Below are positions 1,681 through 57,786 of a stretch of DNA of 64,000 bases, in pieces. The DNA comes from Patescibacteria group bacterium (GTDB taxonomy: Bacteria; Patescibacteriota; Patescibacteriia; Buchananbacterales; UBA6539), in assembly GCA_041662625.1 (NCBI GenBank), contig JBAZSB010000001.1, positions 310,467-374,466 on the forward strand. Reading direction: 5' to 3'. How positions within the stretch are numbered: the stretch's first letter is position 1; each line of letters opens with the position of its first letter. Both the position numbers and the translations under genes were made by a program. A model generated the notes under the pieces. That model made no database searches and was not told the origin of the DNA. It worked only from the letters and a program-made list of their open reading frames with translations.

Positions 1681-1972
1681 ACAACTTAACAAAAAAATGA
1701 CATATTTTGCTATTTTTTAAATAAAATTTGACGATCTTGTCAATTCACAGCTGTAATATGTGGATAAATCAAAATCACCCTCCGGATTTAGAAAAAATTA
1801 AGCTAAAAATATACCTGCCATCACTTCCCTACTTCATCTTGGGATAATCAACTGCTAACTCATAATTTTTATCTAAATAAGATTGACAACACACTATAAT
1901 TCTGTTAATTGTTAATGAGAGGAAAGAAGTCATTTGGTAGGTCAACAAGGTTTACAATTGGAGGGATGCGAC

Positions 1973-3238
1973 ATGGCAACGATAGTAAAGAAATTCGGCG
2001 GATCGTCGCTGACAACAGACGAGCAGGTAATGGCTGCCGCTCGGGCAATAGTTGCGGACCACCAACAACGAACAAGCGTAGTTGTTGTGGTCTCAGCTCG
2101 AGGAAAAACAACCAACCAAATCAGGGCTCGCATCAAGGGCTGTGGTGGTGACGGTACTTCGGAACGGGTACTCGCTTTTGGCGGCTTGGCCGGAGAACGC
2201 GAATCTGCGGCCTGCATGGCGGCGGCCATCGAGTCATTAGGAGTCCAAACCTTTTTGGCTGATGGCGCCGATATCGGCCTTGTGGCTACGGGTGAATTCG
2301 GCCGCGGCCAAGCCAAAACCGTCAGGAAGCCGGAAATCATCATCAAGGCATTGGAGGAAGGCAAGATTGTCGTTCTGGCGGGTTACACGGGTGTAACTAC
2401 AGACGGACGGACGATCGACTTAGGCCGCAGCGGAACTGATACCTTTGCTGTCGTTGTGGCAGCTGCCATCGGAGCAAAGGTTTGTCAGATCTACACTGAT
2501 GTGCCCGGATTCTTTGCGGTTGATCCCCGTCATGTTCCGGGTGCAAAACTGCTGCACCAAATCACTTTCCGGCAAGCACTGAAGTGGGCCAGCGCTGGCA
2601 TCGAAGTAGTCAAGAAGGAATCCTTGGCAGTCGCCGATGGACTTGGTATGCCAATCCAAGTTCTGCTCAGTCCAAGCTTTGACAGCCAACCGTGGCTCGA
2701 ACGCAGTCTTGATGTCCAAGCTGGAACTTGGATCTCGAAAGGGGCGACTTTGGAAGATATGCAGGGTGGTGACCTTGATCAAACGATCTTGGCAATTATC
2801 ACTGACCTCACCATCTTCAACCTCACTGATGTGCCCAATGAGCCAGGCTGGTCAGCCAAGATATTCGGCCTCTGCCGTGACCACAAAATCGTTGTGTTGG
2901 ACATCGCCCAAGGTTTGGCACCCAAGGGCAAAAAGGCGGCCATAACCTTTTGGGTCAAGGCAGAAACTGGCGATCAAACTGAACGAATTTTGAAAGAAGC
3001 CTCTTTGGGCTCAATCAAGATCGAAAGGCGCGACGACATTGGCTGCTTGAGAATTATCGATCCGAGGATGGAGAGAGAAAGCGGTTGGCTTGCCCGAATC
3101 GACGATACCCTAGCCGCCGCCAAGGTCAACATTGAAATCCACCCAACAGCCGGGGACGTCATCCTTTTGCTCATTGCTAAGGACAAGGTTGACGCGGCCG
3201 CTCAAGCGATCGCCAAAGAATTCGGCCTCTGCGCGTAG
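1973..3238 (+). CDS. aspartate kinase (aspartokinase, LysC-like), GC-rich foreign-looking gene
   Basis: KKFGGSSL, VVVVSARG, GRSGTDTFAVV, CQIYTDVPGFFAVDPRHVPGAKLL and ITFRQAL match aspartokinase signature blocks; ACT-like C-terminus; GGAGGG Shine-Dalgarno 7 nt before the ATG; visibly GC-rich relative to flanks. Confidence 0.7.
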   Translation: MATIVKKFGGSSLTTDEQVMAAARAIVADHQQRTSVVVVVSARGKTTNQIRARIKGCGGDGTSERVLAFGGLAGERESAACMAAAIESLGVQTFLADGADIGLVATGEFGRGQAKTVRKPEIIIKALEEGKIVVLAGYTGVTTDGRTIDLGRSGTDTFAVVVAAAIGAKVCQIYTDVPGFFAVDPRHVPGAKLLHQITFRQALKWASAGIEVVKKESLAVADGLGMPIQVLLSPSFDSQPWLERSLDVQAGTWISKGATLEDMQGGDLDQTILAIITDLTIFNLTDVPNEPGWSAKIFGLCRDHKIVVLDIAQGLAPKGKKAAITFWVKAETGDQTERILKEASLGSIKIERRDDIGCLRIIDPRMERESGWLARIDDTLAAAKVNIEIHPTAGDVILLLIAKDKVDAAAQAIAKEFGLCA

Positions 3239-3329
3239 CAAGGAGGAATCCGGAGGGATTGGAGGAATTACAACAAGGGTCCTGCGTGGTCAACGCAAGA
3301 CTCTTTTTTTGAATGATTACTCTAAAATA

Positions 3330-5654: not shown

Positions 5655-7946
5655 ATGGAATATTTAGAAAACAAAATTAACCAACTGATTGTCGAAAAAC
5701 CTGGTAAACAGACAAAATTCGTCCGGTCATTTGCTACCCGGCCAGTGAAACTATTGGGTGAAAAAATCGGCAAAATATTCGGGTTAATTGAAATTGAATC
5801 AAAAAATCCGAAAATACCGGAACTAATTGATTTAATTATTGAAGAAATAAAAAATAGCTATTACCGTCAAAAAGAACAAGTCTCAATAGAAAAACTACCG
5901 GATATTAGCAGTCGTTTTGAAACGGCTTTAAAAAAAACCAATTTAGCGATCACTGCCTTTTTGGAAAGTGAGCAAATCTCTTTGGACTTAAAAAAGGTCA
6001 ATATTATCATTGCTTTATCCTGCCAACAAGAACTCCATTTTACCTTAGTGGGTAATATCGGGGTAATTCTTTTTTATAATCTCTCTTTAGATAATTACCG
6101 AATAATCAATGTTTTAGAAAGTACTCATTCATTTAGTACCGAGCCCGATCCTTTAAAATTATTTTCACAGATCATCAGCGGCCGAATTAGACCTCACGAC
6201 ATTTTATTTATTACTACCGCTAACGTTTTTGATTATTTTTCTTTGGAAAGAATAAAAAATATTATTACTAAACAACCATCAATTGAAGGGGTTAATGAGC
6301 TAAAAAAACTGTTAGAAGAAATGGAAATTAAAGAAAATTTTGGTTCGCTGACCTTAGAATTAGAAAGAATTAACTTGCCAGTCAAAAGAGAAGCTGACGT
6401 TGATGATTTTGATTACCGCAAAGCTGCTTCGCAAGATTCGATTAAAGAATTAATCAGAACCGAAAAGGAAACTGAAAAACTTTTAACTCCCTCACTAATG
6501 CCAGAAATCAAAAAATATACTAGTTCCTTTAAAACTGCCTTCAATAATTACCTAGATAAAGTTAAAACAACAACTGTAACTTTTTATCAAAAAAGAAAGA
6601 TTACTCTCCCAAAAAATATTAGCCTACCACAGCAATTTAATTTAAAACCAAAAATTAAAAGCTTGAATAAAATTGGTGAAACGGCAAAAAAAGTCACTCA
6701 ACCAACAATAATTTCAACCCAAAAAATCTTCACTAATATTGCTAATCAACCAATTTGGAAAAAACTACTCCAAATTAGCCAAAGACTACTTGGTAATTTA
6801 TGGCTAAGGTTTAAAAAATTGCCTCGCTCAAGCCGGATTCTGCTGGTAGTCACAATTATTTTAGTAATTTTATTTTCCCAAAGTCTGATTTGGCTGGGAA
6901 TTAAAAATCGACGAGAACAAAAAGTTGAACAGTTCAACCAAACTATTGTTAATGTCGAAACCAAAAAAAATAATGCTGAATCGAGTTTAATTTATCGGGA
7001 TGAAAATCAGGCCCGGCAATTGTTAATCGAAGCAAAAAATCTGCTTAATGGTCTGGAGCCGTCAAGTAAGGCACAAAAAGAACAAATTACGCTTCTACTG
7101 GGCGGTATTGAGGAACAACTCCAAAAGCTGCGCCATTTGGTTGAAATTACTGATCCAATTCAAGTTGTTAATTTTCAAAATTTGGACAGCCAGGCTAAAA
7201 TTGCCCCTATACTTTTGGCCAGCCAAAAAAGTGTCTACACCCAAAATTATAATAATCAATCAATCTATAAAGCTAATTTGGATACTAGAGTTTTGGCGGC
7301 GATTTATTCACCAACGGCAAACACTGGCAATTTAAAGCTAGGGCTAGCAATTAATAATAATGAATTACTATTCTTTAATGAGGCTGGCGTAGCTTTTCAG
7401 CTAAACCCGCTTAATGAGGCAATCCAAAAAATCCCCCTGAATATCAATAGCAATGCCAACATTATTGATGTTACCACTTTTAATAATCGGATTTATTTGC
7501 TGGATGCTAGCGCTAACCAAATCTACCGCTATACGAAAACAAATGGGAGTTATGGTAATGGTACGAGTTGGATTACTGAACAAGGCCTTGATTTAGCTAG
7601 TGCCAAAGCCCTAACCATTGATGGCTCAATTTATATTCTCAAAGCCGATGGCCAAGTCATTAAACTGGAAAACGGTAAATCGGCTGAATGGCAAAATAAA
7701 GTTATTGATCCCCCGTTTAAATCGCCAACTAAAATTAAAACCACCGAGAGCTCCAAATATCTTTACATTTTAGATCCCCCGACTAAGCGATTGGTTGTTT
7801 TGGATAAAACGGGCAATTTGATTAATCAATATACTTCAAATAGTTTTGATGATTTGAAAGATTTTATTGTGGTGGAAAATCAAAAAGAAATCTATCTCCT
7901 TAATGGCAGCTCAATTTTTGGCATTCCTACCGAGCATTTGAAGTAA
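5655..7946 (+). CDS. hypothetical membrane-anchored protein (cytoplasmic N-domain, one TM, extracytoplasmic repeat-rich C-domain)
   Basis: 763-aa ORF; hydrophobic segment ILLVVTIILVILFSQSLIWLGI near aa 390; C-terminal beta-rich repeats; no recognisable catalytic motif. Confidence 0.4.
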   Translation: MEYLENKINQLIVEKPGKQTKFVRSFATRPVKLLGEKIGKIFGLIEIESKNPKIPELIDLIIEEIKNSYYRQKEQVSIEKLPDISSRFETALKKTNLAITAFLESEQISLDLKKVNIIIALSCQQELHFTLVGNIGVILFYNLSLDNYRIINVLESTHSFSTEPDPLKLFSQIISGRIRPHDILFITTANVFDYFSLERIKNIITKQPSIEGVNELKKLLEEMEIKENFGSLTLELERINLPVKREADVDDFDYRKAASQDSIKELIRTEKETEKLLTPSLMPEIKKYTSSFKTAFNNYLDKVKTTTVTFYQKRKITLPKNISLPQQFNLKPKIKSLNKIGETAKKVTQPTIISTQKIFTNIANQPIWKKLLQISQRLLGNLWLRFKKLPRSSRILLVVTIILVILFSQSLIWLGIKNRREQKVEQFNQTIVNVETKKNNAESSLIYRDENQARQLLIEAKNLLNGLEPSSKAQKEQITLLLGGIEEQLQKLRHLVEITDPIQVVNFQNLDSQAKIAPILLASQKSVYTQNYNNQSIYKANLDTRVLAAIYSPTANTGNLKLGLAINNNELLFFNEAGVAFQLNPLNEAIQKIPLNINSNANIIDVTTFNNRIYLLDASANQIYRYTKTNGSYGNGTSWITEQGLDLASAKALTIDGSIYILKADGQVIKLENGKSAEWQNKVIDPPFKSPTKIKTTESSKYLYILDPPTKRLVVLDKTGNLINQYTSNSFDDLKDFIVVENQKEIYLLNGSSIFGIPTEHLK

Positions 7947-9304: not shown

Positions 9305-9384
9305 GAAAAAGAGAGGACAAACGCCAGACCGGCGCACTATCCTCTCGCTGGGTACTACGTGCGAAGAATGACTGATAGGCGAGA

Positions 9385-9657
9385 TTACGCCAATGCTGCC
9401 GACAATTGAGCCGGCACCTCTGGCTTGTGATTCTCCCACCTCTGTCCTTCGACCCGAAGGCAACTGTCGACAGGAAAGTCAACAAATTCATTGCCTCCGC
9501 ATTGCGGATCTCGTGGCGGGTCGCCGGGCTCGAGGACAAAACCTCGAAATCCATTACGGCCAAGTTTTGGCAGGCCGACGATTTGGATTCTCCTCTCGCT
9601 TCCATCTTGTTGGACAACTGCCACACTTCCGAGTGTCAATTCCGCTTCCGGTACCAT
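9385..9657 (-). CDS. hypothetical 90-aa ORF inside a GC-rich 430-bp island (may not be coding)
   Basis: Perfect SD AGGAGG-8nt-ATG; Gly/Pro/Arg-rich product; region has ORFs open in several frames on both strands as expected for GC-rich DNA. Confidence 0.2.
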   Translation of the reverse strand: MVPEAELTLGSVAVVQQDGSERRIQIVGLPKLGRNGFRGFVLEPGDPPRDPQCGGNEFVDFPVDSCLRVEGQRWENHKPEVPAQLSAALA

Positions 9658-9762
9658 GTTTCGTTCCTCCTAACCGGGGTTATGTGGCCTTGGCCACTTG
9701 CGGTTCTCGATAACTTATATTTAACAAGAATACCTTTATTTGTCAACACTATTATTGCTATT

Positions 9763-10446: not shown

Positions 10447-10453
10447 ATTTTTA

Positions 10454-10523
10454 GAATCAAGGAGTAAGAATCAAGAATCAAGGAAACTAAGCAACCTTAA
10501 TTCTTAATTCTTAATTCTTACTT
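10454..10523. repeat. intergenic palindromic tandem-repeat hairpin, GAATCAAG type, loop core AAGCAACCTT (reverse orientation of AAGGTTGCTT)
   Basis: gaatcaaggagtaagaatcaagaatcaagg-aaactaagcaacc-ttaattcttaattcttaattcttacttc between the mltG stop and the pyrH-like start. Confidence 0.7.
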
Positions 10524-11576
10524 CTATTTGTAATACCTAGCCTTTGCTGCCACATGTTCATCATGAGTCTTGCTGTAAATTACTTTACCATCAGGCGTGG
10601 TCAGAAAATACCAATAAGGATTAGCTTGCGGATAAATTGCTGATTTAATTGCAACAAGACCCGGGTTACAAATTGGCCCTGGCGGCAAACCTTTATATTC
10701 ATAAGTATTATACGGACTGTCAACTTGGATATCAACGGCTGAGGAACGCGCCGCCCCTTTACCAGTAACATAGTTTACTGTGGAGTCAGCTTGCAACGGC
10801 ATGCCCGCCAAAAGACGTTTATAAAAAATGTCAGCCACCAGCTTACGGTCATTTTCCGTTGAAACTTCCTTTTCTAAAATTGAAGCTAAAGTTAAAACCT
10901 CATGGATGGTTTTGCCTTGGCGAGTAATTTCAGACCGTAATTCCGGAGTTAATTTCTTGCCAAAGTTATTAAGCATTTTTTTCACAATGTCAGTAAGCGA
11001 AGCATCCCGGTAAACGCGGTAAGTATCGGGAAAAAGATAGCCTTCTAAATCAGCGGTTTTTGGTCGACTATCTAAAAAATCATATTCATCCCACCAGGCT
11101 GCTTTCTTTTGAACAATATTGAAAAAATCCGCTGGCTGAGCTAAACCATTTTTGGCTAAATAATCAGCAATTTCCTGATTATTCCAACCTTCAATAAAAG
11201 TTAAAGTGATCTCTTTAGTCACGCCGGCACCCCGGCTTAAAATCTGAGCAATCTCTTTCAGGCTTAAATTCTGAGCTAAAAAGTATTCACCATCTTGCAG
11301 GCGGCTATTGATGCCTTGCTGCCAGGTATAAAATTGAAAGAGCCAAGCGCTGCGAATCAAGCCAGCTTTTTGCAATTCCCAACTGATCTCCGTACTCCCC
11401 CAGCCTTTTTCCACTTTAAATTCCTTTTGCTGTGGATTATTAGTAACTGGCTGATTAAGATTATAGGAATAATAAAGCCAGCCGGCTAAAATTAAAACTA
11501 GTAAAATAATTAATAGTTTTCCAGATTTTTTTCTTTTTTTTCGTAAAAACATATTTCTGATTATACTCCTCGCCAT
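10524..11576 (-). CDS. mltG: endolytic murein transglycosylase MltG (YceG-like)
   Basis: N-terminal TM then YceG domain; C-terminal LQADSTVNY...YNTYEYKGLPPGPICNPG motif. Confidence 0.8.
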   Translation of the reverse strand: MARSIIRNMFLRKKRKKSGKLLIILLVLILAGWLYYSYNLNQPVTNNPQQKEFKVEKGWGSTEISWELQKAGLIRSAWLFQFYTWQQGINSRLQDGEYFLAQNLSLKEIAQILSRGAGVTKEITLTFIEGWNNQEIADYLAKNGLAQPADFFNIVQKKAAWWDEYDFLDSRPKTADLEGYLFPDTYRVYRDASLTDIVKKMLNNFGKKLTPELRSEITRQGKTIHEVLTLASILEKEVSTENDRKLVADIFYKRLLAGMPLQADSTVNYVTGKGAARSSAVDIQVDSPYNTYEYKGLPPGPICNPGLVAIKSAIYPQANPYWYFLTTPDGKVIYSKTHDEHVAAKARYYK

Positions 11577-14541: not shown

Positions 14542-14608
14542 GAATTATGAATTATGAATTATGAATTATGTGGTTTCCCTAATTCCTAATTCCTAATTCC
14601 TAATTCCT
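14542..14608. repeat. intergenic palindromic tandem-repeat hairpin: (GAATTATG)x4 - spacer - (CTAATTCC)x4
   Basis: Exact 8-bp tandem units on both arms, in the divergent region between uppP and the DUF212 gene. Confidence 0.75.
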
Positions 14609-14614: not shown

Positions 14615-15043
14615 ATGGATTTATCCTATATCATTATACCAATAATTGTCCTAATTACCAGCCAGGTTTTAAAATTACTGACTGATGGCATTAAAGGCAA
14701 TTTTGATCTGCGAAATCTTTTTATCAGCTACGGCGGCATGCCTTCTTCGCACACGGCTTTCGCTGTTTCTATCACCACACTAATTGGCCTGAGAGAAGGC
14801 TATGATTCCGCTCTCTTTGCCTTGGCCTTAGTTTTTACATTGCTAGTCATGCGCGACGCCGTGGCGTTCCGCGGTCTTTTGGGCAAACAAGCGAAAGTCT
14901 TTAATACTTTGATTAAAAGATTTCCCGAGGCAGAAAAAAAAGATCTGCCCTTGTTTCGGGAACAGATGGGACACAGCACGCTGGAAGTAACTGGCGGCAT
15001 TATTTGGGGAATTGGTTTGACCTATCTTTTGAGTTTATTATAG
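14615..15043 (+). CDS. DUF212 / acid-phosphatase-vanadium-haloperoxidase-related membrane protein (YuiD-like)
   Basis: GGMPSSHTAF motif; 142 aa with multiple TM segments. Confidence 0.5.
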   Translation: MDLSYIIIPIIVLITSQVLKLLTDGIKGNFDLRNLFISYGGMPSSHTAFAVSITTLIGLREGYDSALFALALVFTLLVMRDAVAFRGLLGKQAKVFNTLIKRFPEAEKKDLPLFREQMGHSTLEVTGGIIWGIGLTYLLSLL

Positions 15044-15173
15044 TCTGCAAAAAATCATTACTGAGGTTTAAAGACCTCTTTTTTATTTATTGACAATTTA
15101 GTTTAAATAGGATAAGAAAGAGATAGTCGAAACGACCTACGATGGTGTAGGTTATGAAGAGGAGGAACCCAAA

Positions 15174-16037
15174 TTGATCACTCTTACGGGAATAAGCGAC
15201 GAGGCGGGCCAGGACCTAATGGCCCAAATCAAAGCCCACCAGGAATTAGGTTGGGGTTATCTGGAGTTACGCGCCGTTGACGGCAAACTTGTCACCCGGA
15301 TGAACAACCGGGAATTCGACCCCATTTACGCCGCTGTGACTGCAGCCGGCCTCAAAGTGTCGTGCTTTTCTAGCGGCATCGCCAACTGGGCACACCCCAT
15401 CACGGGCAAGCTCAGACCGGATACCGATGAGCTGAGACGCGCCATTGCTCACATGCGCCTCTGCGGCACTCGGTACATCCGAATCATGAGCTACCCCAAC
15501 GATGAGAAGCATCCGGTACCGGAAGCCGAGTGGCGGCGGGAAGCCATTCGCCGAGTCAAACGGATGGTCAGAATTGCCGAGGAATACAACGTCGTTCTGG
15601 CTCACGAGAATTGCTCCGGCTGGGGCGGGATATCGTGGGAAAACAACCTTGCTCTGATCGAGGCAATCGACAGCCCGAACTTCGGGGTACTGTTCGATAC
15701 AGGTAACCCGCCGACCTATGGCAAGGATACCTGGGAATGGTACCTCAAGGTCCGCGACCGGATCATCTACGTCCATATCAAGGACGCCCGTCTCAACTTA
15801 TCCCACGACCCAGAACAAGACGTCTACACCTACGCGGGTGAAGGCGACGGCTGCGTGCGCCGGGTGCTCGCTGACCTCGTCAGACGCAACTGGACCGGGT
15901 TCGTTTCCACTGAACCCCATCTGGCCGCAGTCATTCACACCGGTCAAAAGGCCGAACCACAAGCTTTGTACGACTCGTATGTCGAGTACGGCAGAAAATT
16001 GATGGACCTCATCAAACAGATCAGGGCCGAAGCCTGA
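15174..16037 (+). CDS. sugar phosphate isomerase/epimerase (xylose-isomerase-like TIM barrel), GC-rich foreign-looking gene, TTG start
   Basis: AP_endonuc_2 / XylA-like TIM-barrel pattern (AHENCSGWGG..., FDTGN); GAGGAGG SD 8 nt before the TTG; GC-rich with its own terminator. Confidence 0.55.
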   Translation: MITLTGISDEAGQDLMAQIKAHQELGWGYLELRAVDGKLVTRMNNREFDPIYAAVTAAGLKVSCFSSGIANWAHPITGKLRPDTDELRRAIAHMRLCGTRYIRIMSYPNDEKHPVPEAEWRREAIRRVKRMVRIAEEYNVVLAHENCSGWGGISWENNLALIEAIDSPNFGVLFDTGNPPTYGKDTWEWYLKVRDRIIYVHIKDARLNLSHDPEQDVYTYAGEGDGCVRRVLADLVRRNWTGFVSTEPHLAAVIHTGQKAEPQALYDSYVEYGRKLMDLIKQIRAEA

Positions 16038-16065
16038 TATAGCGGAGGAACTCGAAATTGCTAGT

Positions 16066-16116
16066 TCCCTGCTCCCTGGTGCGTTCGTGCATCTGGAAGA
16101 GCAGGGACTTTTTTTA
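16066..16116 (+). terminator. GC-rich intrinsic terminator of the isomerase cassette
   Basis: TCCCTGCTC ... GAGCAGGGA then CTTTTTTT. Confidence 0.6.
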
Positions 16117-17145: not shown

Positions 17146-17931
17146 TTATATTTTACAATACTTTTTGACCTGCTTTACTAATTCCCGGTGTAATTTTGGC
17201 CGCGCTACCAGTATACCCCTAGGCTTTTCATTGGCATGCCATACAGTACCATCCAAATTAGTGCATTTAACTCCGGCTTCCTGGCAAATTAAACTGCTAG
17301 CGGCAATATCCCAGCTATTATCACCGGCGAAAAACGCCGCATCCATCCGACCAACGGCTACATAGCAGAAACAAATCGCCATGCTGGCATGCCGGGATTG
17401 GATATAGACTTTTTTTGTTAAATCTTTTGCCAGCTGATAAAGGTCATATTTTGCCGTTGGCCAAAGTTCCAAATCAACATAAGCCTGACTCATATTCTGG
17501 CAGGCCGTGGATTTAATTTTTTTACCGTTCAAATAAGCGCCTTTGCCTTTCTGCGCAAAAAACAGTTCATTTCTGATCGGATCACAAACTGTTGCTAAAA
17601 TCATTTCTTTACCTTTAGCTAAGCCGATGGAATTGGTAAAAAAAGCAATACCGCGAGAAAAAGGAATGGTGCCGTCAATTGGGTCAATGTGCCAGGTATA
17701 GCTAGAAGTACTTTTTTTGAATGGCAATTCTTCAGAAATAATGCCGTGATCGGGAAAATAGCGTCTGATTTGGTTATACAAATATTTATTAACCCGTAAG
17801 TCGGTTTTAGTCAGCGGGCTATTATCCGGTTTCCAAGTGACTTCTCGTTTACCAAAAAAACCTTTTCTGGTAATTTTGGCTGATTCTTGAGCAATGTGTA
17901 AAATAAACTTCTTTAAATCTTTTTCCGTCAT
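17146..17931 (-). CDS. inositol monophosphatase family protein (SuhB-like)
   Basis: WHIDPIDGT and DAA...GDN IMPase motifs. Confidence 0.75.
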   Translation of the reverse strand: MTEKDLKKFILHIAQESAKITRKGFFGKREVTWKPDNSPLTKTDLRVNKYLYNQIRRYFPDHGIISEELPFKKSTSSYTWHIDPIDGTIPFSRGIAFFTNSIGLAKGKEMILATVCDPIRNELFFAQKGKGAYLNGKKIKSTACQNMSQAYVDLELWPTAKYDLYQLAKDLTKKVYIQSRHASMAICFCYVAVGRMDAAFFAGDNSWDIAASSLICQEAGVKCTNLDGTVWHANEKPRGILVARPKLHRELVKQVKKYCKI

Positions 17932-23701: not shown

Positions 23702-23859
23702 AGAAATGCCTCTGTATTATACTAGATTATAATATATTTGACAAGAGTAAAAAATTGAGTTAAAGTACAAAATCAACAAGGGAGAGGAAGTAGAAGTTTG
23801 GCATTGGCAGAAGTACGGCACAAATTTGTCCCTTAGTGATAGGGACAGGAGGGCATAAC

Positions 23860-24570
23860 ATGATGCCGAGCATACTGCTAGTTGATAGCAGCGAACTGAC
23901 ACTGAGCGTAACCACCCGATTACTGGTGGCTCTCAAGTGTAACGTGTTGGTTAGTACTACCGCTGAAGGAGCGCTAAGAGCACTTCAGTCTGACGAAATT
24001 GACCTGGTCATAACCGAAACCGGCGATTGGGTCGGAGGTGGTGGGGCGACATTTCTTCCCACCCTGAAACAGGCCAGCAAGGTACCGGTGGTAATCCTGG
24101 GCGGCAGTGTCGGGGATCTAGATACACAGATCCTGACGGCAGCTGGGTTTGCCGTACACCATAAACCGACCACCAAGGACATCCTGCGAACGATCGTTGC
24201 CGTCACCAAAAAGATACTGCTCGTTGACGAAGACCAACTGGCAAGGGAAGCTGTGACAGAAATGCTCCAAGCTCTTGGGCACCCTGTGACTGCCGTTGCT
24301 ACCACCAAGGAGGCGCTGGCAGCGTTCAAGGCTGGAGGATTCAGCCTCGTCATCACCGAGAGCGGAGAAGTTCTTGTCGACGGCGGGGTGGAATTTCTCA
24401 CCGCTCTAAAAAGGCATAACGGCCATGTACCCGCGATAATCCTCGGCAGCAGTGTCAGTACTAAGGACGAGGAAGTAGCGAGCATGATGGCGGCTGGGTT
24501 TGCCGGCGTCTGGCGAAAGACGGTCACTCTATCCGAATTGGGGACGATTGTGGCTTCAGTCATCGGCTGA
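23860..24570 (+). CDS. tandem receiver-domain protein (two CheY-like domains, the second lacking the acceptor Asp), GC-rich foreign-looking gene
   Basis: ILLVDSSEL...IDLVITE and ILLVDEDQL...FSLVITE repeats; promoter TTGACA-17-TAAAGT and SD GGAGGG upstream; GC-rich. Confidence 0.5.
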   Translation: MMPSILLVDSSELTLSVTTRLLVALKCNVLVSTTAEGALRALQSDEIDLVITETGDWVGGGGATFLPTLKQASKVPVVILGGSVGDLDTQILTAAGFAVHHKPTTKDILRTIVAVTKKILLVDEDQLAREAVTEMLQALGHPVTAVATTKEALAAFKAGGFSLVITESGEVLVDGGVEFLTALKRHNGHVPAIILGSSVSTKDEEVASMMAAGFAGVWRKTVTLSELGTIVASVIG

Positions 24571-24608
24571 ACAGCCACGTCCTTCTTCGACAACTCTTGT
24601 GTTGATCA

Positions 24609-24631
24609 CGACTCCTCCGGGAGTCGTTTTT
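24609..24631 (+). terminator. intrinsic terminator of the receiver cassette
   Basis: CGACTCC-tccg-GGAGTCG-TTTTT. Confidence 0.65.
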
Positions 24632-25615
24632 CTAAAAACCTAAATATTGGACTTCTTCCTGAATCTGGGCGCCCAATTGGTTCCTGACCCGCATTTTAAC
24701 ATCAGAAATTAGCATCATGACGTGTTCGGCTTTGGCCTCACCAGTATTAATAAAAAAGGCACAATGTTTATCAGAAATTTTGCAGCCGCCAATTGTTTTA
24801 TTTTTCAAACCTAAATGGTCAATCACAAAGCCAATCGGCAATTTGCCAAACGCCGTTGCTTCCTGCCATTCTTTTTCAGTGATATCTAATTCCTTAATGG
24901 CTTTTTGGGGATCGATTGCAACTTTATCCAGTTCAATGTTTTGAAAAATGCAGCCAGCGCTGGGTTCATAGGGCAATTTATCATTGCGATCTTTGATTAT
25001 TTTAAGCACTTCGGCATGAATTGCTTGGGAGTCACCATTTTTTAAACCGACAACAACCGATAGAATAATGCCGCCGGTTTGTTTAACCAGACTTTGCCGG
25101 TAACTATATTTCATTTCTTCTTTAGTCAACTCTTGGACTTGCCCATTTTGATAAACTTTAACTTTTTTTATAACATCGCCAAATCCCTTGCCATAAGCGC
25201 CGGCATTGCCTCGCGCAGCGCCACCAACGGTTCCCGGAATTCCTGAAGCAAATTCTAAACCAGTTAAGCCAGCCCGGGCGGCCTCCCCAACTAGCCGGCT
25301 CAGATTGACTCCGGCTTCGGCAAAAATTTCTTCACCTCTGACTTCAAAATTTTCGCTGAGGGTTTTTATTACTAAGCCAGCAAAACCATTATCAGCAACC
25401 ACCAAGTTGCTGCCCCAACCCAAAATAAAATAAGGCAGGTTTAAATCTTGGGCTGTTTTAACCGCCAAAAGTAATTCATCGCTATTTTTGGCAACATAAA
25501 AATACTTAGCCGGTCCACCAATCTTAAAAGTGGTGTGATTAGCCATTGGCTCGTTTTCTTTAACGGTGCCAAGTTTTTGCTGTAGCTGACTTAACATAAA
25601 AGAATTTAGAATCAC
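24632..25615 (-). CDS. murB: UDP-N-acetylenolpyruvoylglucosamine reductase MurB
   Basis: HTTFKIGGPAKYF FAD-binding motif; 327 aa; true start may be the internal Met (MLSQLQQ, about 25597). Confidence 0.8.
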   Translation of the reverse strand: MILNSFMLSQLQQKLGTVKENEPMANHTTFKIGGPAKYFYVAKNSDELLLAVKTAQDLNLPYFILGWGSNLVVADNGFAGLVIKTLSENFEVRGEEIFAEAGVNLSRLVGEAARAGLTGLEFASGIPGTVGGAARGNAGAYGKGFGDVIKKVKVYQNGQVQELTKEEMKYSYRQSLVKQTGGIILSVVVGLKNGDSQAIHAEVLKIIKDRNDKLPYEPSAGCIFQNIELDKVAIDPQKAIKELDITEKEWQEATAFGKLPIGFVIDHLGLKNKTIGGCKISDKHCAFFINTGEAKAEHVMMLISDVKMRVRNQLGAQIQEEVQYLGF

Positions 25616-25680
25616 GAATCAAGAATTAAGGTTGCTTAGCAATTCTCCCTTGATTCTTACTTCTTACTTCTTGATTCTAA
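25604..25680. repeat. intergenic palindromic tandem-repeat hairpin, GAATCAAG type, loop core TTAAGGTTGCTTAGCAA
   Basis: gaatcacgaatcaagaattaaggttgcttagcaattctcccttgattcttacttcttacttcttgattc between the murC stop and the murB start. Confidence 0.7.
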
Positions 25681-27065
25681 TTAATTAGCTTATCCCTAAC
25701 CCGATACACATCTCCTGCCCCCATTGTTACTAAAACTATGCCGGGTTTAATTTTATCTTTCAAACAATTAACTGCGTGATTTAAATCGCCAGCATAAATA
25801 ACATTCTGATGGTAGATTTTGGCTTCTTTGGCCAAATCTTTGGAAGTGATATCTTCGGCTTGTTCCCGGGCGGAAGCAAAAATATCAGCGAATAGCACCA
25901 TATCCACATCATTGAAACTTTGGGCAAAATCATTTAACAAAGCCTTGGTCCGGGAAGCCATATGCGGCTGAAAAACACACCAAATCAAATTATTGGGGAA
26001 ACGCTGACGAATGGCTTTCAGGGTAGTTTTGATTTCGGTGGGATGATGGGCGTAATCATCAACAAAAGTGATACCATTTCTTTCAGAAATATCAAAACGC
26101 CTTTCGCTACCTTTAAATTGTTTCAAAATATTTTGGATTTCGCCGATTTTTAGTCCCTCATTTAAACCAATAATTATTACCGCCAAAGCATTTAAGGCAT
26201 TATGCTCGCCAAAAAGTCCGATTTCAAATTCACCAAAGTCCTGGCCGGCTTTTTTAACTTTAAAAATAGTACGATCGAATTCCACTCTAACATCATAAGC
26301 TTGCCAAGTATTACTTACCTCAAAGCCATAAGTGACGGTTTTGCTTTCATTACCTTTAATAATTTTTTTAATGGCGGGCCAATCGCCACAAACTACCAAT
26401 AGCTCTTTGGTTTTCTGGACTAATTTTTGGAATGCAACCTCCATTGATTCTAAATCAGGATAGATATCAACATGTTCCCATTCTAAACTGGTAATTACCG
26501 AAATTGCCGGATCTAAATCTAAAAATTTTGGCGTTTTATCTTCTTTACTGCGGACATATTCATCACCTTCGACAATAAAGTGGACGCCTGAGGCCCACTT
26601 GGAATTGCTGCCTAAATCCGGCACCATCCCTGTACCAATCAAAAAACTGGGGTCAAGGCCGGCCTGAGAAAACAAATAGGCCATTAGCGCAGTTGTTGTC
26701 GTTTTGCCATGGACACCGGTAATGGCAATAGTTTTTTTCTCTTGGCTTAATAAACCCCGCATTTCTGAATCAGTAATATTAGGCAATTTCCTTTTTTTAG
26801 TTTCGGCTACTTCAATATTATCATCTCCCCAGGAAGTGCCAATTACCACTAAATCCGGATTACAATCCAGATTTGCTGCCGAAAAATCTTCAAAAATTTC
26901 AATCTCATGATCAATTAAAATTTTATCAGTAATAAATTTTTCTTCAACATCGGAACCAAAAACTTCCAGCCCTTTTTGTTTACAAATTACCGCCAAGCCT
27001 GACATCGCCACGCCTTTAATGCCGATGAAATAAACTCTTTTGATTTTAGCTAGATTAATAGCCAT
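25677..27065 (-). CDS. murC: UDP-N-acetylmuramate--L-alanine ligase MurC
   Basis: Mur ligase domains; GVHGKTTTTAL P-loop. Confidence 0.85.
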   Translation of the reverse strand: MAINLAKIKRVYFIGIKGVAMSGLAVICKQKGLEVFGSDVEEKFITDKILIDHEIEIFEDFSAANLDCNPDLVVIGTSWGDDNIEVAETKKRKLPNITDSEMRGLLSQEKKTIAITGVHGKTTTTALMAYLFSQAGLDPSFLIGTGMVPDLGSNSKWASGVHFIVEGDEYVRSKEDKTPKFLDLDPAISVITSLEWEHVDIYPDLESMEVAFQKLVQKTKELLVVCGDWPAIKKIIKGNESKTVTYGFEVSNTWQAYDVRVEFDRTIFKVKKAGQDFGEFEIGLFGEHNALNALAVIIIGLNEGLKIGEIQNILKQFKGSERRFDISERNGITFVDDYAHHPTEIKTTLKAIRQRFPNNLIWCVFQPHMASRTKALLNDFAQSFNDVDMVLFADIFASAREQAEDITSKDLAKEAKIYHQNVIYAGDLNHAVNCLKDKIKPGIVLVTMGAGDVYRVRDKLIN

Positions 27066-29018: not shown

Positions 29019-29266
29019 ACCCGGTAGTAGTCCCGCCCTTTTTCTTTTTTTGAAAAATAACGGGGAATTTTATTAATTTTATATTTATCCCAATAGTAAT
29101 CCTATCAATTAAAGGAGTGGGATCACTACCGGGTATAGCTAAAAAATAACAGATTTCTGACAAAAAATCAATAACTACCGATGTTATTTCTAATGATTGA
29201 CATTAATTAAAAAATTTAGTAAGCTTGAAGGCAACTTTGTCCCAACGACGAAGAGGAGGGAATGAA

Positions 29267-29527
29267 ATGGGCATAAAAAATGCTCTCGGCTACCGACTGT
29301 ACCTGTTCTACGAACTGTGGTTCTGTTTTACCCGCGGCGTCCGGCTCCATACGTTGATTGCTTGCCGCCACTGCGGTAAGGAGCCAACCAAACGGCAAGG
29401 CTGCCCCCAAAGCTGCCGGCAAGGAGTGTTTTTCGAGGAAGACATCTATGGCCGGCCGGGACTTTGGCTCAGGCGGGTGATCCGGGCTATTCAGGCCGAA
29501 GTATTTGGCTACCCCTGTCTGGGGTAA
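29267..29527 (+). CDS. hypothetical 86-aa Cys/His-containing small protein in a GC-rich mini-cassette (may instead be a structured RNA)
   Basis: SD GGAGGG 7 nt before the ATG; CRHCGK...CPQSC cluster; followed by a strong terminator; an antisense ORF is also open. Confidence 0.25.
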   Translation: MGIKNALGYRLYLFYELWFCFTRGVRLHTLIACRHCGKEPTKRQGCPQSCRQGVFFEEDIYGRPGLWLRRVIRAIQAEVFGYPCLG

Positions 29528-29564
29528 CCACTCCTCCTGGTTAGCACTAATCAATCGTACCCTT

Positions 29565-29592
29565 GAGACCGTCTCCGGACGGCTCTTTTTTT
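29565..29592 (+). terminator. intrinsic terminator of the small GC-rich cassette
   Basis: GAGACCGTC-tccg-GACGGCTC-TTTTTTT. Confidence 0.65.
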
Positions 29593-33761: not shown

Positions 33762-35489
33762 ATGTTTACTGAGCAAGAAATTGAAAAAATTATTCTGGAA
33801 ACCAAAATTTTAGGCCAAAAAGAACTAAATTTATACCTTGAGGAGTCAAAAAAAAGGAACCAAAAGCTGGAAGAATACCTTATCAGCCAGAAAATTATCA
33901 ACGAGGAACAACTCTACCAGACTGCCGCCCAATATTTTAATCTCCCCTTTATTAACCTCAAAAACGAAACTATCCGCAAGGATATTCTTTTTTTAATCCC
34001 CGAACCAATAGCGACCACTCATCGGATTCTCGCTTTCGACAAAACCGATACGGAATTAAAACTTGCCGCCCTGAATCCAGCCGATTTACAAATCTTTGAA
34101 TTTTTAGGTAAAAAAACCGGCCTCGAAGTAAAAATCTATCTAACCACACCGGAAGGCATTAATGAGGGAATAAAAAATTATCACAAAGGATTAAAAGCAG
34201 AATTTCAAGAACTTACCAATGGCAAGGAAAATATTGAAATTTCCGGCGATACTAAATTAAAAGAATTAGCCCATGATTTGCCGGTAATCAGAATAGTCGA
34301 TACTTTACTGGAATATGCAATCTTTGAAAGTGCGTCGGATATTCATATTGAACCAACGGAGAAAGAGGTGGTTGTTCGCTACCGAATTGATGGGATCTTA
34401 CGGAATGTCATGACTCTGCCTAAATCGATTCATGCCGGTATTATTGCCCGAATCAAAATTTTGGCAAATTTAAAATTAGATGAACATCGCTTACCCCAGG
34501 ATGGCCGTTTCAAAATTGTCACCAATGAATATAAAGTATCATTTCGTGTTTCCATTATTCCGGCCTATGACGGAGAAAAAATAGTCTTGCGGGCTTTAAA
34601 TGAACAAACCAGTGTAATCACTCTGGAGCAGCTCGGCTTTCAGAAAAAATCATTGGATAGAATTAAAAGAAATATCGCTAAACCCCACGGCCTAATTCTG
34701 GTAACCGGACCGACTGGTTCGGGAAAAACCACAACTCTTTATGCCGTCTTAAACATCCTAAACCGACCGGAAGTGAATATTACCACCATTGAGGACCCAA
34801 TTGAATATCGAATGCCCGGCATCAATCAAACTCAGGTTAACCCAAAAATCGGTTATACTTTTGCCGGCGGCTTACGGGCATTTCTAAGGCAAGATCCTAA
34901 TATTATTATGGTCGGCGAAATCCGGGATCAGGAAACTGCGGAAATCGCCATTCATGCGGCTTTAACCGGCCATCTAGTACTTTCCACTCTTCATACTAAT
35001 GACGCCCCAACAACCTTGCCTCGCTTAAGCGAAATGGGAGTACCGGCCTTTTTGGTTGCCTCCACCTGTAATGTCATTATTGCCCAAAGGCTGGTAAGAA
35101 AAATCTGCCAAGACTGCATTGAAAGCTACAATTTAACTAAAGAAGAAATCGCAAAATTAGAAAAGCAAATTAATCTAGAATCAATTCTCAGCACCTTGGA
35201 AAAAGAAAATCTAATAACCAAAAAACAAAGTAAGGAATCTCTGCTTTTCTACCGCGGCAAAGGCTGCAAGAAATGCAATAAAACCGGCTATAAAGGCCGA
35301 ATTGGCCTTTATGAAGTGTTGGAAATCACCCCAGAGATTAATGAATTGATTCTTAAGGGCTCACCGGCCAAAGAAATTCTGGAAACTGCCAAAAAACAAG
35401 AAATGCTAACCATTCTGGAAGATGGCTTCATTAAAGCTAAAACCGGAATTACTACGATTGAAGAAGTGCTCAGGGTAACAAAAGATTAA
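33762..35489 (+). CDS. pilB: type IV pilus assembly ATPase PilB (GspE family)
   Basis: GspE N-domain; Walker A GPTGSGKTTT; Asp box and His box; C-terminal tetra-Cys zinc motif CQDC...CKKC. Confidence 0.85.
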   Translation: MFTEQEIEKIILETKILGQKELNLYLEESKKRNQKLEEYLISQKIINEEQLYQTAAQYFNLPFINLKNETIRKDILFLIPEPIATTHRILAFDKTDTELKLAALNPADLQIFEFLGKKTGLEVKIYLTTPEGINEGIKNYHKGLKAEFQELTNGKENIEISGDTKLKELAHDLPVIRIVDTLLEYAIFESASDIHIEPTEKEVVVRYRIDGILRNVMTLPKSIHAGIIARIKILANLKLDEHRLPQDGRFKIVTNEYKVSFRVSIIPAYDGEKIVLRALNEQTSVITLEQLGFQKKSLDRIKRNIAKPHGLILVTGPTGSGKTTTLYAVLNILNRPEVNITTIEDPIEYRMPGINQTQVNPKIGYTFAGGLRAFLRQDPNIIMVGEIRDQETAEIAIHAALTGHLVLSTLHTNDAPTTLPRLSEMGVPAFLVASTCNVIIAQRLVRKICQDCIESYNLTKEEIAKLEKQINLESILSTLEKENLITKKQSKESLLFYRGKGCKKCNKTGYKGRIGLYEVLEITPEINELILKGSPAKEILETAKKQEMLTILEDGFIKAKTGITTIEEVLRVTKD

Positions 35490-35530
35490 CCGATAATTAG
35501 TTGATTTAAAAAATAAAAATATTAATCGCG

Positions 35531-36619
35531 ATGAACCTAAAAGAAAAATTGGCTCAAATAGTAGGCTGGCTGCGAAAGCCAAGAAAAGTTTCCCTTTCCC
35601 AAAAAATATTCTTTGTCCAACAGCTGGGGGTAATGCTTAAAGCCGGAATTTCTTTGTCGACTGCTTTAAAAACTCTGGCCCAGCAGACAACTTCCAAAAG
35701 TTTCAAAACAATTTTAGTTGACCTTCAACAAGACGTAGAAAAAGGCAATTTACTTTCTAAAGGTCTGGAGAGATACTCAAAAATATTTGGCGAATTATTC
35801 ATCAATATGATTAAAGCTGGTGAAGTTTCCGGCAAGCTCGAGGATGTTTTAAAACAACTTTTTGTCCAGCTGAAAAAGGATCACGACATCATCTCAAAGG
35901 TCAAGGGGGCGATGATTTATCCGATGATTGTGATTCTAATGATGATTGCTATTGGAATTTTGGTTCTAATCTATGTCATTCCAACTATGTCGGGCATCTT
36001 TACTGAAATGAATATTGAATTACCGCTAGCGACCAGAATCTTGATCTACTCTAGCCAATTCGCTCTGAACTACGGAATTTTTGTTTCAATCGGTTTAGCA
36101 ATTTTGGCAGTCATAATTGGCCGAGTAATTAGCCTGCCACAAGGAAAGAGACAATTCCACCAGCTGCTTTTAAAAACTCCGATTTTGGGCCGGATAATCA
36201 GAAAGATTAATTTGGCCCGTTTTTGTCGAGCTTTAAGCTCACTGCTTAAAACTGACATCCCAATCGTCCAATCATTTGAAATCACTGCCAAAATTCTCGG
36301 CAATGTCAAATATAAAGATGCGCTAACTGAAGCTAAAGAAAAAATTAAAAAAGGCGTCAGTATTGAAGAGTCATTAAGACCGCACATTAAACTATTTCCG
36401 CCAGTTGTCTTGCAGATGATTATGGTTGGTGAAGAAACCGGAGCCTTGGATAATATTTTGGAAGAATCAGCTGTTTTCTATGAAGAAGACGTTGCCCAAA
36501 CTATGGAAAATTTACCTTCAATTTTAGAACCAGTCTTAATGATTATCCTCGGCATTGCAGTGGCGGGAATGGCCGTCGCTGTTATTATGCCGATGTACTC
36601 TTTGAGCCAACAAATCTAA
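35531..36619 (+). CDS. pilC: type IV pilus platform protein PilC (GspF family)
   Basis: Two GspF repeats; three TM segments; 362 aa. Confidence 0.85.
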   Translation: MNLKEKLAQIVGWLRKPRKVSLSQKIFFVQQLGVMLKAGISLSTALKTLAQQTTSKSFKTILVDLQQDVEKGNLLSKGLERYSKIFGELFINMIKAGEVSGKLEDVLKQLFVQLKKDHDIISKVKGAMIYPMIVILMMIAIGILVLIYVIPTMSGIFTEMNIELPLATRILIYSSQFALNYGIFVSIGLAILAVIIGRVISLPQGKRQFHQLLLKTPILGRIIRKINLARFCRALSSLLKTDIPIVQSFEITAKILGNVKYKDALTEAKEKIKKGVSIEESLRPHIKLFPPVVLQMIMVGEETGALDNILEESAVFYEEDVAQTMENLPSILEPVLMIILGIAVAGMAVAVIMPMYSLSQQI

Positions 36620-36627
36620 CCAGAAAA

Positions 36628-39882: not shown

Positions 39883-39897
39883 GGGCAGAATAAAAAA

Positions 39898-41946: not shown

Positions 41947-41957
41947 AAAATATTTTT

Positions 41958-44091: not shown

Positions 44092-44096
44092 ACAAC

Positions 44097-45985: not shown

Positions 45986-45996
45986 AGTTAGTTATA

Positions 45997-48633: not shown

Positions 48634-48723
48634 GTATATCCTAACCAGCCTTTCTTGACAATTCGGCCGCCATAAGCTATTATACTTCCATCCCTAATTT
48701 CTAATTCCTACTTCCTAAAAAAT

Positions 48724-53121: not shown

Positions 53122-53139
53122 ACTTTCTTTGAAATTTCC

Positions 53140-54084: not shown

Positions 54085-54090
54085 TTTTTA

Positions 54091-54163: not shown

Positions 54164-54339
54164 TTCACTATTGTTTGTTCTTTAACTTAATAATATCAGA
54201 ATTTCCTTATTTATCAAATAAATTATTTCAATAAAATACTAATTTTAGCCAAAATTAACCAAAAGTAATTGACAAAACTAGTAAAATATGCTATTATTAT
54301 ATATTGCTCTCTAAAATAAAATTGGTTAAATTCGCGCCT

Positions 54340-54397
54340 GGTTGATTCAGATAAGCGGTAAATTGGTTTTCTGGTTTACCGCTTACTTGAATCAACC
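54340..54397. repeat. 23-bp inverted repeat pair (GGTTGATTCAGATAAGCGGTAAA / TTTACCGCTTACTTGAATCAACC) separated by 12 bp, at the left edge of the GC-rich creatininase cassette
   Basis: Read directly; 21/23 complementary; preceded by a putative promoter TTGACA(54268)-17-TATTAT. Confidence 0.5.
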
Positions 54398-54464
54398 AGT
54401 GGAATAAGGAAGAAGAGGCGCCACATTACGTGGCATAACACAGATAAGGAAAGGAATTGGAGAA

Positions 54465-55241
54465 ATGCTGAGACTACAGCAGATGTCCCACACACAGGTA
54501 GAAACGCACCTGCGAGAACACCCCAACGCGGTCGCGGTATTGGCGGTTGGCAGTACGGAACAGCATGGCTTTGGTCCGTGCGGCACCGACCACCTGATTG
54601 CCAAGTATCTGTCGCATCGTGTGACAGAAGGCGTCGAGAACACCGTGCTCGTACCCTCGATTGCCTACGGCATGAGCAAGCACCACACGTGGGCCAGCGG
54701 CACGATTTCGCTGCCGTGGGAACTCTTCCAGGGATTGGTCGCCAACGTATTGGAGGAGCTCTACCGGAGCGGGTTTCGGCGGGTGGTTATCATCAACGGA
54801 CACGGGGGCAATCACGAGCCGATCGAGATGGCCATCAAGTCCGTCCGGACCTTCCACAAAGATCTGCAGGTGCAGAACCGCCTGATGATCTACGTCCAGG
54901 TCGAGGAGAAGTACGAGAACCCGATTCGCGAGCAGATGCTCGAACTCTGCGCGGCAGTCGGCCAGCAAGAACTCTCGCATGCCGATGCACCGGAGTTTTC
55001 CCTCTTGTTCGCCATGTTCCCCACACTCCAGCAATATCTGGACGCCGACCTCGCCGAAATGCCGAAACTACCGGATTTGTCGGCGGTGACCGGCGTACGC
55101 GATCCCCAGGAGTGGAAAGCGAAGATGGCACCTTGCCGCGGTGGCAAGGGCGATCCCCGCGAAGCCAACCTGGAAGTTGGCGCAAAAGTCGTTCAGGCTC
55201 TCGTTGCCCAGTTAGTCGCAGACGCGACTACGGGCTGGTAA
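54465..55241 (+). CDS. creatininase-family amidohydrolase, GC-rich foreign-looking gene
   Basis: AVGSTEQHG and INGHGGN metal-binding motifs; very GC-rich region producing many overlapping spurious ORFs on both strands. Confidence 0.6.
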   Translation: MLRLQQMSHTQVETHLREHPNAVAVLAVGSTEQHGFGPCGTDHLIAKYLSHRVTEGVENTVLVPSIAYGMSKHHTWASGTISLPWELFQGLVANVLEELYRSGFRRVVIINGHGGNHEPIEMAIKSVRTFHKDLQVQNRLMIYVQVEEKYENPIREQMLELCAAVGQQELSHADAPEFSLLFAMFPTLQQYLDADLAEMPKLPDLSAVTGVRDPQEWKAKMAPCRGGKGDPREANLEVGAKVVQALVAQLVADATTGW

Positions 55242-55261
55242 GAGCCCCATCGTAAGACGAC

Positions 55262-55310
55262 AAAGAGGCGTACCTCGAGTTTTACTCTTGGTGCGCCTCT
55301 TTCCGTTTAG
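55262..55310 (+). terminator. 13-bp-stem hairpin terminating the creatininase cassette
   Basis: AAAGAGGCGTACC-...-GGTGCGCCTCTTT (one G.U). Confidence 0.5.
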
Positions 55311-57784: not shown

Positions 57785-57786
57785 AA

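Follow-up and report, generated by a model that had tools for sequence, protein, structure and literature searches.

Six GC-rich, Shine-Dalgarno-led single-gene units at conserved intergenic slots of an AT-rich Patescibacteria genome, possibly old genes of foreign origin

We analyzed a 64-kb stretch of DNA (the window) from contig JBAZSB010000001.1 of a Patescibacteria group bacterium (assembly GCA_041662625.1, positions 310,467 to 374,466), in which six short GC-rich units with one gene each interrupt AT-rich DNA. The units are numbered c1 to c6 by position, and 61 native genes of the window form the reference set. The whole window has a GC content of 39.3%, and a profile in 400-nt steps, together with statistics for each open reading frame (ORF), revealed six sharp GC-rich blocks, located where a first-pass annotation of the sequence had placed them. 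The GC contents of the genes from c1 to c6 were 0.539, 0.546, 0.571, 0.551, 0.567 and 0.595, compared with a native mean of 0.383 (standard deviation = 0.037, maximum = 0.453, n = 61), corresponding to z = 4.2 to 5.7. In total, the units occupy approximately 5.3 kb, or 8% of the window.

We further compared the GC content at third codon positions (GC3) of each gene with the value that the native codon table predicts for a protein of the same amino acid content. GC3 in the six units was 0.49-0.74, whereas 0.39-0.40 was expected (0.56 versus 0.39 for c1), and the z scores of the shift from c1 to c6 were 7.8, 2.1, 11.5, 6.4, 5.4 and 12.1, the native z scores having a standard deviation of 1.4. 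The encoded proteins are enriched in A, G, V and R and depleted in K, N, I, F and Y; the codon-table control rules out the GC3 excess being a by-product of this amino acid usage, and the contrast described in the first-pass annotation extends to codon usage (z = 2.1 to 12.1). Strand or orientation was likewise rejected as the cause, because c2 is co-oriented with its neighbors yet GC-rich, and native plus-strand genes (5655-7946, 14615-15043 and 33762-44414) are AT-rich. Composition and codon usage of all six units are atypical for the host genome. Judged by these sequence properties and by the signals listed in Table 1, the units appear to be compositionally foreign, self-contained and monocistronic elements lying between intact native genes.

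Table 1. Predicted features of the six GC-rich units. Positions are those of the window; SD, Shine-Dalgarno sequence; UTR, untranslated region; CDS, coding sequence; aa, amino acids
Unit	Feature	Position	Strand	Basis or remark
c1	Promoter-like hexamers	TTGACA 1883-1888, TATAAT 1895-1900	+	Non-canonical spacing
c1	5' UTR and SD GGAGGG	SD 1960-1965 (region 1883..1972)	+	SD duplex -9.8 kcal/mol
c1	CDS, 421 aa, predicted divergent aspartate-kinase-family protein (AA_kinase and two ACT)	1973-3238	+	Pfam, NCBIfam
c1	Record MFA6254694.1, locus tag WC675_01520		+	NCBI
c1	3' UTR, three SD-like GGAGG repeats	3239-3270	+	Sequence
c1	Terminator hairpin and T-run	Hairpin 3279-3301 (3' UTR to 3306)	+	Sequence, folding
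c2	Whole unit	9305..9746	-	Promoter TTGACA (9746-9741)-17-TAAATA, 5' UTR hairpin
c2	SD AGGAGG	9671-9666	-	Anti-SD duplex
c2	CDS, 90 aa, no family	9657-9385	-	ORF; protein homologues in relatives
c2	Terminator hairpin	~9345-9305	-	Folding
c3	Whole unit	15090..16116	+	TTGACA 15090-15095, 5' UTR hairpin
c3	SD GAGGAGG	15159-15165	+	Anti-SD duplex
c3	CDS, TTG start, 287 aa, xylose-isomerase-like TIM barrel (AP_endonuc_2)	15174-16037	+	Pfam
c3	SD-like copy after stop	16041-16056	+	Sequence
c3	Terminator	~16064-16116	+	Folding
c4	Whole unit	23738..24633	+	Promoter TTGACA-17-TAAAGT 23738-23766, 5' UTR hairpin
c4	SD AGGAGGG	23847-23853	+	Anti-SD duplex
c4	CDS, 236 aa, two receiver domains, no output domain	23860-24570	+	Pfam
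c4	Terminator and T-run	24608-24627	+	Folding
c5	Whole unit	29197..29592	+	TTGACA 29197-29202
c5	SD GAGGAGGG	29253-29260	+	Anti-SD duplex
c5	CDS, 86 aa, small CxxC...C...C protein, no family	29267-29527	+	ORF; orthologue in sister species
c5	Terminator and T-run	29569-29582	+	Folding
c6	Whole unit	54269..55309	+	Promoter TTGACA-17-TATTAT 54269-54297
c6	5' UTR hairpin, 25 bp, 92% complementary	54338-54399	+	Folding
c6	SD TTGGAGA, weak	~54455-54461	+	Anti-SD duplex
c6	CDS, 258 aa, creatininase family; MFA6254749.1	54465-55241	+	Pfam, NCBI
c6	Terminator hairpin, weak T-tract	~55264-55300	+	Folding

The c1 protein matched PF00696 (3.5e-38) and ACT models of Pfam, and its score against TIGR00657 (228.2 bits) exceeded the cutoff of 208.7 for the aspartate kinase family. 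Against the equivalog models of NCBIfam it fell far below every cutoff (for example, 229 versus 376), and it is 29-33% identical to canonical enzymes; we therefore predict a divergent member of the family. Pfam and NCBIfam agreed with the functions first assigned to the units, namely aspartokinase (at family level), sugar-isomerase TIM barrel, tandem receiver and creatininase family, with a correction for c2, which lies on the minus strand (CDS 9385-9657) in the same orientation as rplJ. Gene callers start the c3 protein later than the TTG codon at 15174. The c5 unit separates ftsW from murG inside the dcw cluster. No tRNA or Rfam family was found in any of the six units. Structured non-coding RNA was rejected for c2 and c5, which gave no Rfam match even at E <= 1 and no tRNA or tmRNA, and which have SD-bearing, protein-level homologues in related loci (L003, L050 and L093; L plus a number labels a locus from related or same-species contigs). 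Smaller hairpins than that of c6 lie upstream of the SD in c2, c3 and c4. None of these four 5' UTR hairpins matched Rfam, and riboswitches in the unit 5' UTRs were rejected on the same ground, the sole sub-threshold match being a native L10 leader.

We scored each start by the energy of its duplex with the anti-SD, with a threshold of -6 kcal/mol. The six units ranged from -6.1 to -12.4 kcal/mol, compared with a native median of -0.4. All six reached the threshold, as did 5 of 61 native genes (Fisher p = 4.6e-6); the other 56 were weaker, and the same pattern was seen in relatives. At the ORF starts adopted here, the native genes that lack an SD include rplJ, rplL, rpmA and rplI, although for rplL an independent gene call starts 33 nt downstream, after AAGGAG (-8.2 kcal/mol). 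The contrast between SD-led units and largely SD-less native genes had been recognized in the first-pass annotation; in c6 the SD is weak. Native starts are typically preceded by an A/T-rich ...TAAAAAT. At the other end, a hairpin and T-run close all six units, as first described, the T-tract of c6 being weak.

A TTGACA-type -35 element occurs in AT-rich DNA just upstream of each GC-rich block, and the block itself begins near the transcription start. The promoter spacing is canonical in c2, c4 and c6, plausible in c3 and c5, and absent in c1. Because these elements lie in AT-rich DNA and native operons use the same TTGACA promoter type, the unit promoters look host-type and not imported. The first-pass annotation had described TTGACA-17-nt promoters for several of the units. 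SD-like or anti-SD-like motifs also occur directly after the stops (3239-3270, 16041-16056 and 29530-29540): in c3 the motif nearly copies the unit's own SD (AGCGGAGGAACTCGAA versus AGAGGAGGAACCCAAA), and the c5 3' UTR contains CTCCTCC, complementary to its own SD.

Such a sharp contrast could arise if GC-rich reads had been chimerically joined into an AT-rich contig during assembly or binning, but nothing beyond the contrast itself points to this. Contigs from four other samples (ENA ERZ27249449, Logan SRR18595301 and SRR6484324, and JGI Ga0172379) were 99.8-100% identical to the window. These independent assemblies reproduced both junctions of c1, c2, c3, c4 and c6 (c3 in L126, c4 in L092, c6 in L080-L082); the same-species contig at c5 covers the left junction only, and a sister species has a c5 orthologue in the same slot. 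The same types of junction also occur in other species. Assembly chimerism is therefore excluded, in agreement with the first-pass annotation. Within the species, 0 of 32 single-nucleotide polymorphisms fell inside a unit, but these were clustered, so the figure is not significant.

To place the host, we used a genome scan with ribosomal protein L10, which put the window within Patescibacteria; the nearest species representatives were Candidatus Buchananbacteria, with about 63% L10 identity and conserved gene order. The sequence is recorded at NCBI on a 922-kb contig of a Patescibacteria metagenome-assembled genome. Relatives were sought by a metagenome scan with MurC, which recovered the species itself, one sister species whose MurC is 85% identical, and numerous relatives at the level of the family. 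The proteins flanking the same slots in these relatives were 50-89% identical.

For c1 and c6, we searched 5.8 billion proteins. The c1 protein had four close homologues (43-53% identity), after which identity dropped to about 32%. The three homologues looked up are all located between mraZ and the same receiver and tsaB genes, with flanks 50-82% identical to those of the window, and the topology of c1 pairwise identities is that of four flanking genes. In three Buchananbacteria (L050, L004 and L005) the slot is empty, with no remnant of an aspartokinase. The c6 protein belongs to a small clade of homologues with 35-76% identity, followed by a drop to about 30%. Three of these (76, 49 and 47% identity) were looked up and were all in the same gene neighborhood: the orthologue adjoins a PPDK_N gene, in divergent orientation, in L087 and L091, and stands beside a PEP-utilizer-type gene in a rearranged cluster in L090. 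All three of these orthologues are GC-rich and SD-led or nearly so. Between the window and the sister species, 36% of synonymous third positions of c6 differ, compared with 37% in five flanking genes.

The creatininase neighborhood in the window comprises four paralogous genes and the PPDK_N gene (51637-63403), of which 51637-53121 has a PEP-utilizers match. In relatives, NicX/M29 and CYTH genes join this neighborhood, which in L091 abuts type IV secretion-like genes. The creatininase and TIM-barrel proteins show a weak resemblance to IolN and IolE, and positions 17146-17931 encode a member of the inositol-monophosphatase family.

The remaining slots show turnover of occupants. Between murB and secA, the slot of c4, opposite-strand SD-led receiver genes were found in nine related lineages; these receivers are 24-48% identical, whereas their flanks are 50-88% identical, and in L097 the slot holds a membrane protein with a GC3 shift of z = 7.5. 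Upstream of rplJ, L050 encodes a c2 homologue of 109 aa and L003 an SD-led one of 94 aa. The c5 orthologue was found solely in the sister species (L093; 67 aa, with an SD and GC3 of 0.63), while in five other relatives the slot is empty and ftsW and murG are adjacent. At the c3 slot, between the DUF212 and fpg genes, the TIM-barrel gene is shared by the window and L094; L003, L100, L102 and L004 instead encode another SD-led protein, 78-85 aa long, and L097 and L006 have no gene there. The presence or absence polymorphism that the first-pass annotation had thought worth seeking therefore exists, the slots of c1, c3 and c5 being empty or refilled in some relatives. In every case examined, slot genes in relatives carry an AAGGAGG-type SD and their neighbors do not.

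The 78-85-aa slot protein (L003 3345-3681, L100 8576-8918, L102 19626-19862 and L004 2669-2926) is conserved and ends in ...CGWGMEDF..., and no family could be assigned. GC-rich islands also occur elsewhere in these genomes: one at L001 1-700, some 8 kb to the left of the window, has a GC content of 0.55 and small ORFs, one of them SD-led (CAAGGAGGTG), and another, at L050 7000-7400 in Buchananbacteria 39_17, spans about 400 bp with a GC peak of 0.64, lies between rplL and a gene of 781 aa, and is absent from the window.

These distributions bear directly on the interpretation given in the first-pass annotation, in which ready-made promoter-gene-terminator cassettes were recently and repeatedly inserted by one common recombination system. 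In its favor, the six units are uniform in anatomy and contrast strongly in composition. However, diverged relatives have orthologues at these very slots, the tree of the aspartokinase agrees with those of its flanking genes, and the synonymous divergence of the creatininase gene equals that of its neighbors; the sister species has both the creatininase gene and c5 at the homologous sites. The promoters, moreover, are host-type. Around the six units we found no shared flanking direct or inverted repeats and no attC-like sites, an 11-nt inverted pair around c1 being within chance expectation, and no integrase, transposase, terminal repeats or target duplications were found near the units, whose neighbors are housekeeping genes. 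The two motifs said to be shared among units also failed as border motifs: TTTGTCCC occurs 8 times in the window (2.8 expected), six of them inside native genes, and AATTGGAG occurs 4 times (4.3 expected). Recent insertion by a common system is thus very improbable, and the same slots, the tree congruent with the flanks and the equal synonymous divergence argue for vertical descent.

Evidence of an outside source was obtained for c3. Its protein is 55-60% identical to more than 100 proteins from outside the candidate phyla radiation (CPR), including Hydrogenedentes and Nitrospiraceae, and on the contigs examined these homologues have a GC3 of 0.89-0.93, lie in DNA of 65-70% GC and share an operon with a DJ-1/PfpI gene. 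Native MurC, by comparison, is 35-37% identical to that of other phyla. As an outside identity of 55-60% contrasts with about 35% for native core proteins, c3 represents an inter-phylum transfer into the CPR lineage.

We consider that the six units have about an even chance of being old, foreign-derived accessory genes that retain a donor-type SD, terminator and GC-rich coding sequence, sit in conserved slots subject to turnover, and are incompletely ameliorated. The host is an AT-rich member of Patescibacteria near Buchananbacteria whose own genes are translated without an SD; under this explanation, its ancestors would have gained foreign single genes at different times. After entry, each gene would have passed down vertically in a fixed intergenic slot, being lost or replaced in certain lineages. 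Each unit has an AT-rich, host-type TTGACA-like promoter, and its donor-type features (GC-rich codons and amino acids, a strong SD and a GC-rich hairpin terminator) run from approximately the transcription start to the terminator. The SD may have been kept by selection if structured GC-rich mRNAs were unable to use the SD-independent initiation of the host, and the GC excess would be a slowly decaying signature, its magnitude set by donor GC and by how long the gene has been resident. Dedicated mobility machinery would not have been required, entry having probably occurred by DNA uptake and illegitimate insertion between operons.

The codon composition of orthologues forms a gradient that agrees with such ageing. 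Native-like GC3 was found in the receiver genes of L098, L100, L101 and L108, in the c2 homologue of L003 and in the slot gene of L108. The GC3 shift of the aspartokinase is weak in L083 (z = 2.1), the L083 and L086 copies being near-native, whereas the creatininase shift is strong in L087, L090 and L091 (z = 5-8.5). Orthologues with relaxed GC3 still keep the GC content at first and second codon positions (GC1 and GC2) and the SD, which is the order expected of ageing xenologues. An SD also leads the AT-rich 23S_rRNA_IVP gene of L087, so the SD points to foreignness, or to genes inserted as a class, and not to a high GC content as such. Relatives with native composition, which the first-pass annotation had named as refuting acquisition, exist in part: GC3 is near-native for the aspartokinase in L083 and L086 and for the receiver in L098, L100, L101 and L108, while other orthologues are GC-shifted. 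By our own arithmetic from substitution and GC3 counts, which is rough, starting from a donor GC3 of about 0.9-0.95 yields the values seen for the aspartokinase, and substitution counts in the flanks give a relaxation factor of about 0.69 per lineage since the split between the window and the sister species.

Several observations weigh against this explanation. The creatininase gene has a GC3 of 0.75 in the window and 0.72 in the sister species at a synonymous difference of 36%, and neutral decay at the rates of the flanks would place its acquisition at about their split, from a donor with a GC3 of about 0.9 or more. It also occupies the same neighborhood in the deeper lineages L090 and L091 (47-49% identity), where it is still shifted by +0.19 and +0.14. 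The aspartokinase shift is +0.17 in the window compared with +0.05 in L083, at similar amino acid rates. Among the 5.8 billion proteins, neither the aspartokinase nor the creatininase had a GC-rich or outside donor: homologues from outside Patescibacteria share about 30% identity with them, a level not above that expected of native genes, and their nearest relatives are syntenic Patescibacteria copies. The GC-rich donors proposed in the first-pass annotation are therefore supported for c3 and not for these two genes. Finally, a subgroup of Parcubacteria has been reported to lack the anti-SD (PMC9297842), and a search for the 3' end of the 16S rRNA found no rRNA in the window or in any fetched locus. 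The misfits in GC3 could be caused by lineage-specific synonymous rates, unseen xenologous replacement, or a force holding GC high.

Such a force is central to an alternative in which the units form an actively maintained SD-led class and their high GC is a gene-specific equilibrium, set by selection or by GC-biased gene conversion. Selection could, for instance, stabilize sparsely translated mRNAs against AU-specific RNases or confine initiation to the SD. Every orthologue examined has kept the SD, including those whose UTRs cannot be aligned, and the GC-rich block matches the transcript and not the promoter. In four lineages with saturated synonymous sites, creatininase GC3 is 0.59-0.75, and between the window and the sister species its strong-to-weak and weak-to-strong changes are balanced (26 versus 20) at flank-like divergence. 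In a set of 70 genes called independently at related loci, those led by an SD exceeded the locus median on average by +0.081 GC, compared with +0.001 for the rest (p = 0.003). On the other hand, some SD-led orthologues are fully native in their codons, as in the receiver, c2 and slot genes listed above, and one SD-led gene, the 23S_rRNA_IVP gene of L087, has a GC content of 0.32, so that high GC is not required for function. Whole unit transcripts fold far better than shuffled sequences (z = -2.3 to -7.4), mainly owing to UTR hairpins and terminators; coding windows do so slightly more than native ones (z = -1.03 versus -0.33, p = 0.026), a marginal excess on which strong selection for mRNA structure in the coding region was rejected. 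We know of no mechanism for a gene-specific GC3 excess of 0.2-0.35 in bacteria, which counts against active maintenance, and we regard it as possible but doubtful. A broader proposal, that a family of Patescibacteria has two translation regimes, with an SD-independent core and a conserved SD-dependent GC-rich minority whose composition is actively held and which is separately controlled (for example by conditional translation or RNase resistance), seems to us unlikely.

Another possibility is exchange at the slots among related Patescibacteria, which would draw on a shared accessory pool through DNA uptake and recombination, the GC-rich alleles of the window coming from GC-rich family members such as Buchananbacteria of 54-56% GC. 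Presence is patchy, a single slot can have different occupants, and the receivers at one slot are far more diverged than their flanks. GC-rich relatives also exist (L006, 0.537; L109, 0.49), and most single-gene transfers reported in Patescibacteria are within the phylum (PMC12455944). However, composition changes sharply within intergenic DNA, and adjacent native genes carry no GC-rich recombination tracts, while aspartokinase and creatininase co-diverge with their flanks. L006, the sole GC-rich relative sampled across two slots, has both empty, and the search of 5.8 billion proteins found no closer homologue in a GC-rich context. Slot exchange as the general explanation is thus quite unlikely.

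The old-xenologue explanation invites comparison with known systems. Horizontally acquired genes reportedly approach host composition as described by the amelioration model of Lawrence and Ochman (1997), and the units resemble such genes in their atypical GC and codons, GC3 nearing the host before GC1 and GC2, a patchy distribution, and one distant high-GC source (c3). Unlike such genes, each unit is a lone gene in a slot that has persisted through family-level divergence, two or more of the units have diverged in step with the flanking genes, the creatininase is shifted further than simple neutral decay predicts, and the foreign signature extends to SD-led initiation, which host genes do not use. 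Integron cassettes, which are promoterless, end in attC and are arrayed beside intI, share with the units one gene each and miscellaneous accessory functions; in contrast, the units of the window are scattered, have their own promoter and intrinsic terminator, and lack an attC-like repeat or integrase. In Bacteroidota, translation is SD-independent, the anti-SD is sequestered and SD-led genes are rare (PMC7797042). The genome-wide lack of SDs, including ribosomal-protein genes, and the small strong-SD minority are similar here, but the phylum differs, and the SD-led minority consists of GC-rich monocistronic accessory genes. Within Patescibacteria, single-gene horizontal transfer is common, with transferred genes and islands making up to 13% of a genome, mostly from within the phylum, in a survey that by its own account misses ancient, integrated events (PMC12455944). 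Individually transferred genes are a shared feature, at about 8% of our window, whereas that survey has neither conserved slots nor an SD dichotomy.

In the literature searched, we found no description of an SD-led minority linked to both a GC shift and conserved slots. If the units are old xenologues, an SD together with a GC shift in an SD-less lineage would flag foreign genes long after standard detectors of horizontal transfer fail, and conserved intergenic slots would be revealed as sites of accessory-gene turnover. If instead the GC-rich state is maintained, it would represent gene-specific composition control coupled to translation-initiation mode, which to our knowledge has not been described for bacteria, and it would bear on start-site choice by CPR ribosomes, some of which are reported to lack the anti-SD.

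Two further features of the native DNA were observed. Downstream of c2 lie the rplJ promoter (TTGACA-16-TATACT, 9304-9277) and then an L10 leader (9273-9134). The latter is a full-length match to RF00557 on the minus strand (41.8 bits compared with a gathering threshold of 44, E = 0.0023), and in the window the genes upstream of rplJ are a UMP-kinase-like gene and c2, not rplK and rplA. Tandem heptamer arrays occur at 10453-10525, 14542-14608, 25600-25682, 45996-46072, 48693-48718, 50721-50782 and 54090-54165, with 3.6-4.7 copies of the units CCTAATT/GAATTAG, AGAATCA/CTTGATT, CTTAATT and GAATTAT. These arrays, which may have a regulatory role or act as leaders that need no SD, are often inverted pairs able to form 30-bp hairpins and are present also in the relatives L050 and L087. 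They lie directly 5' of the first genes of native operons, namely those for CTP synthase, DUF212/BacA, L27, PPDK_N, MurB and the UMP-kinase-like protein.

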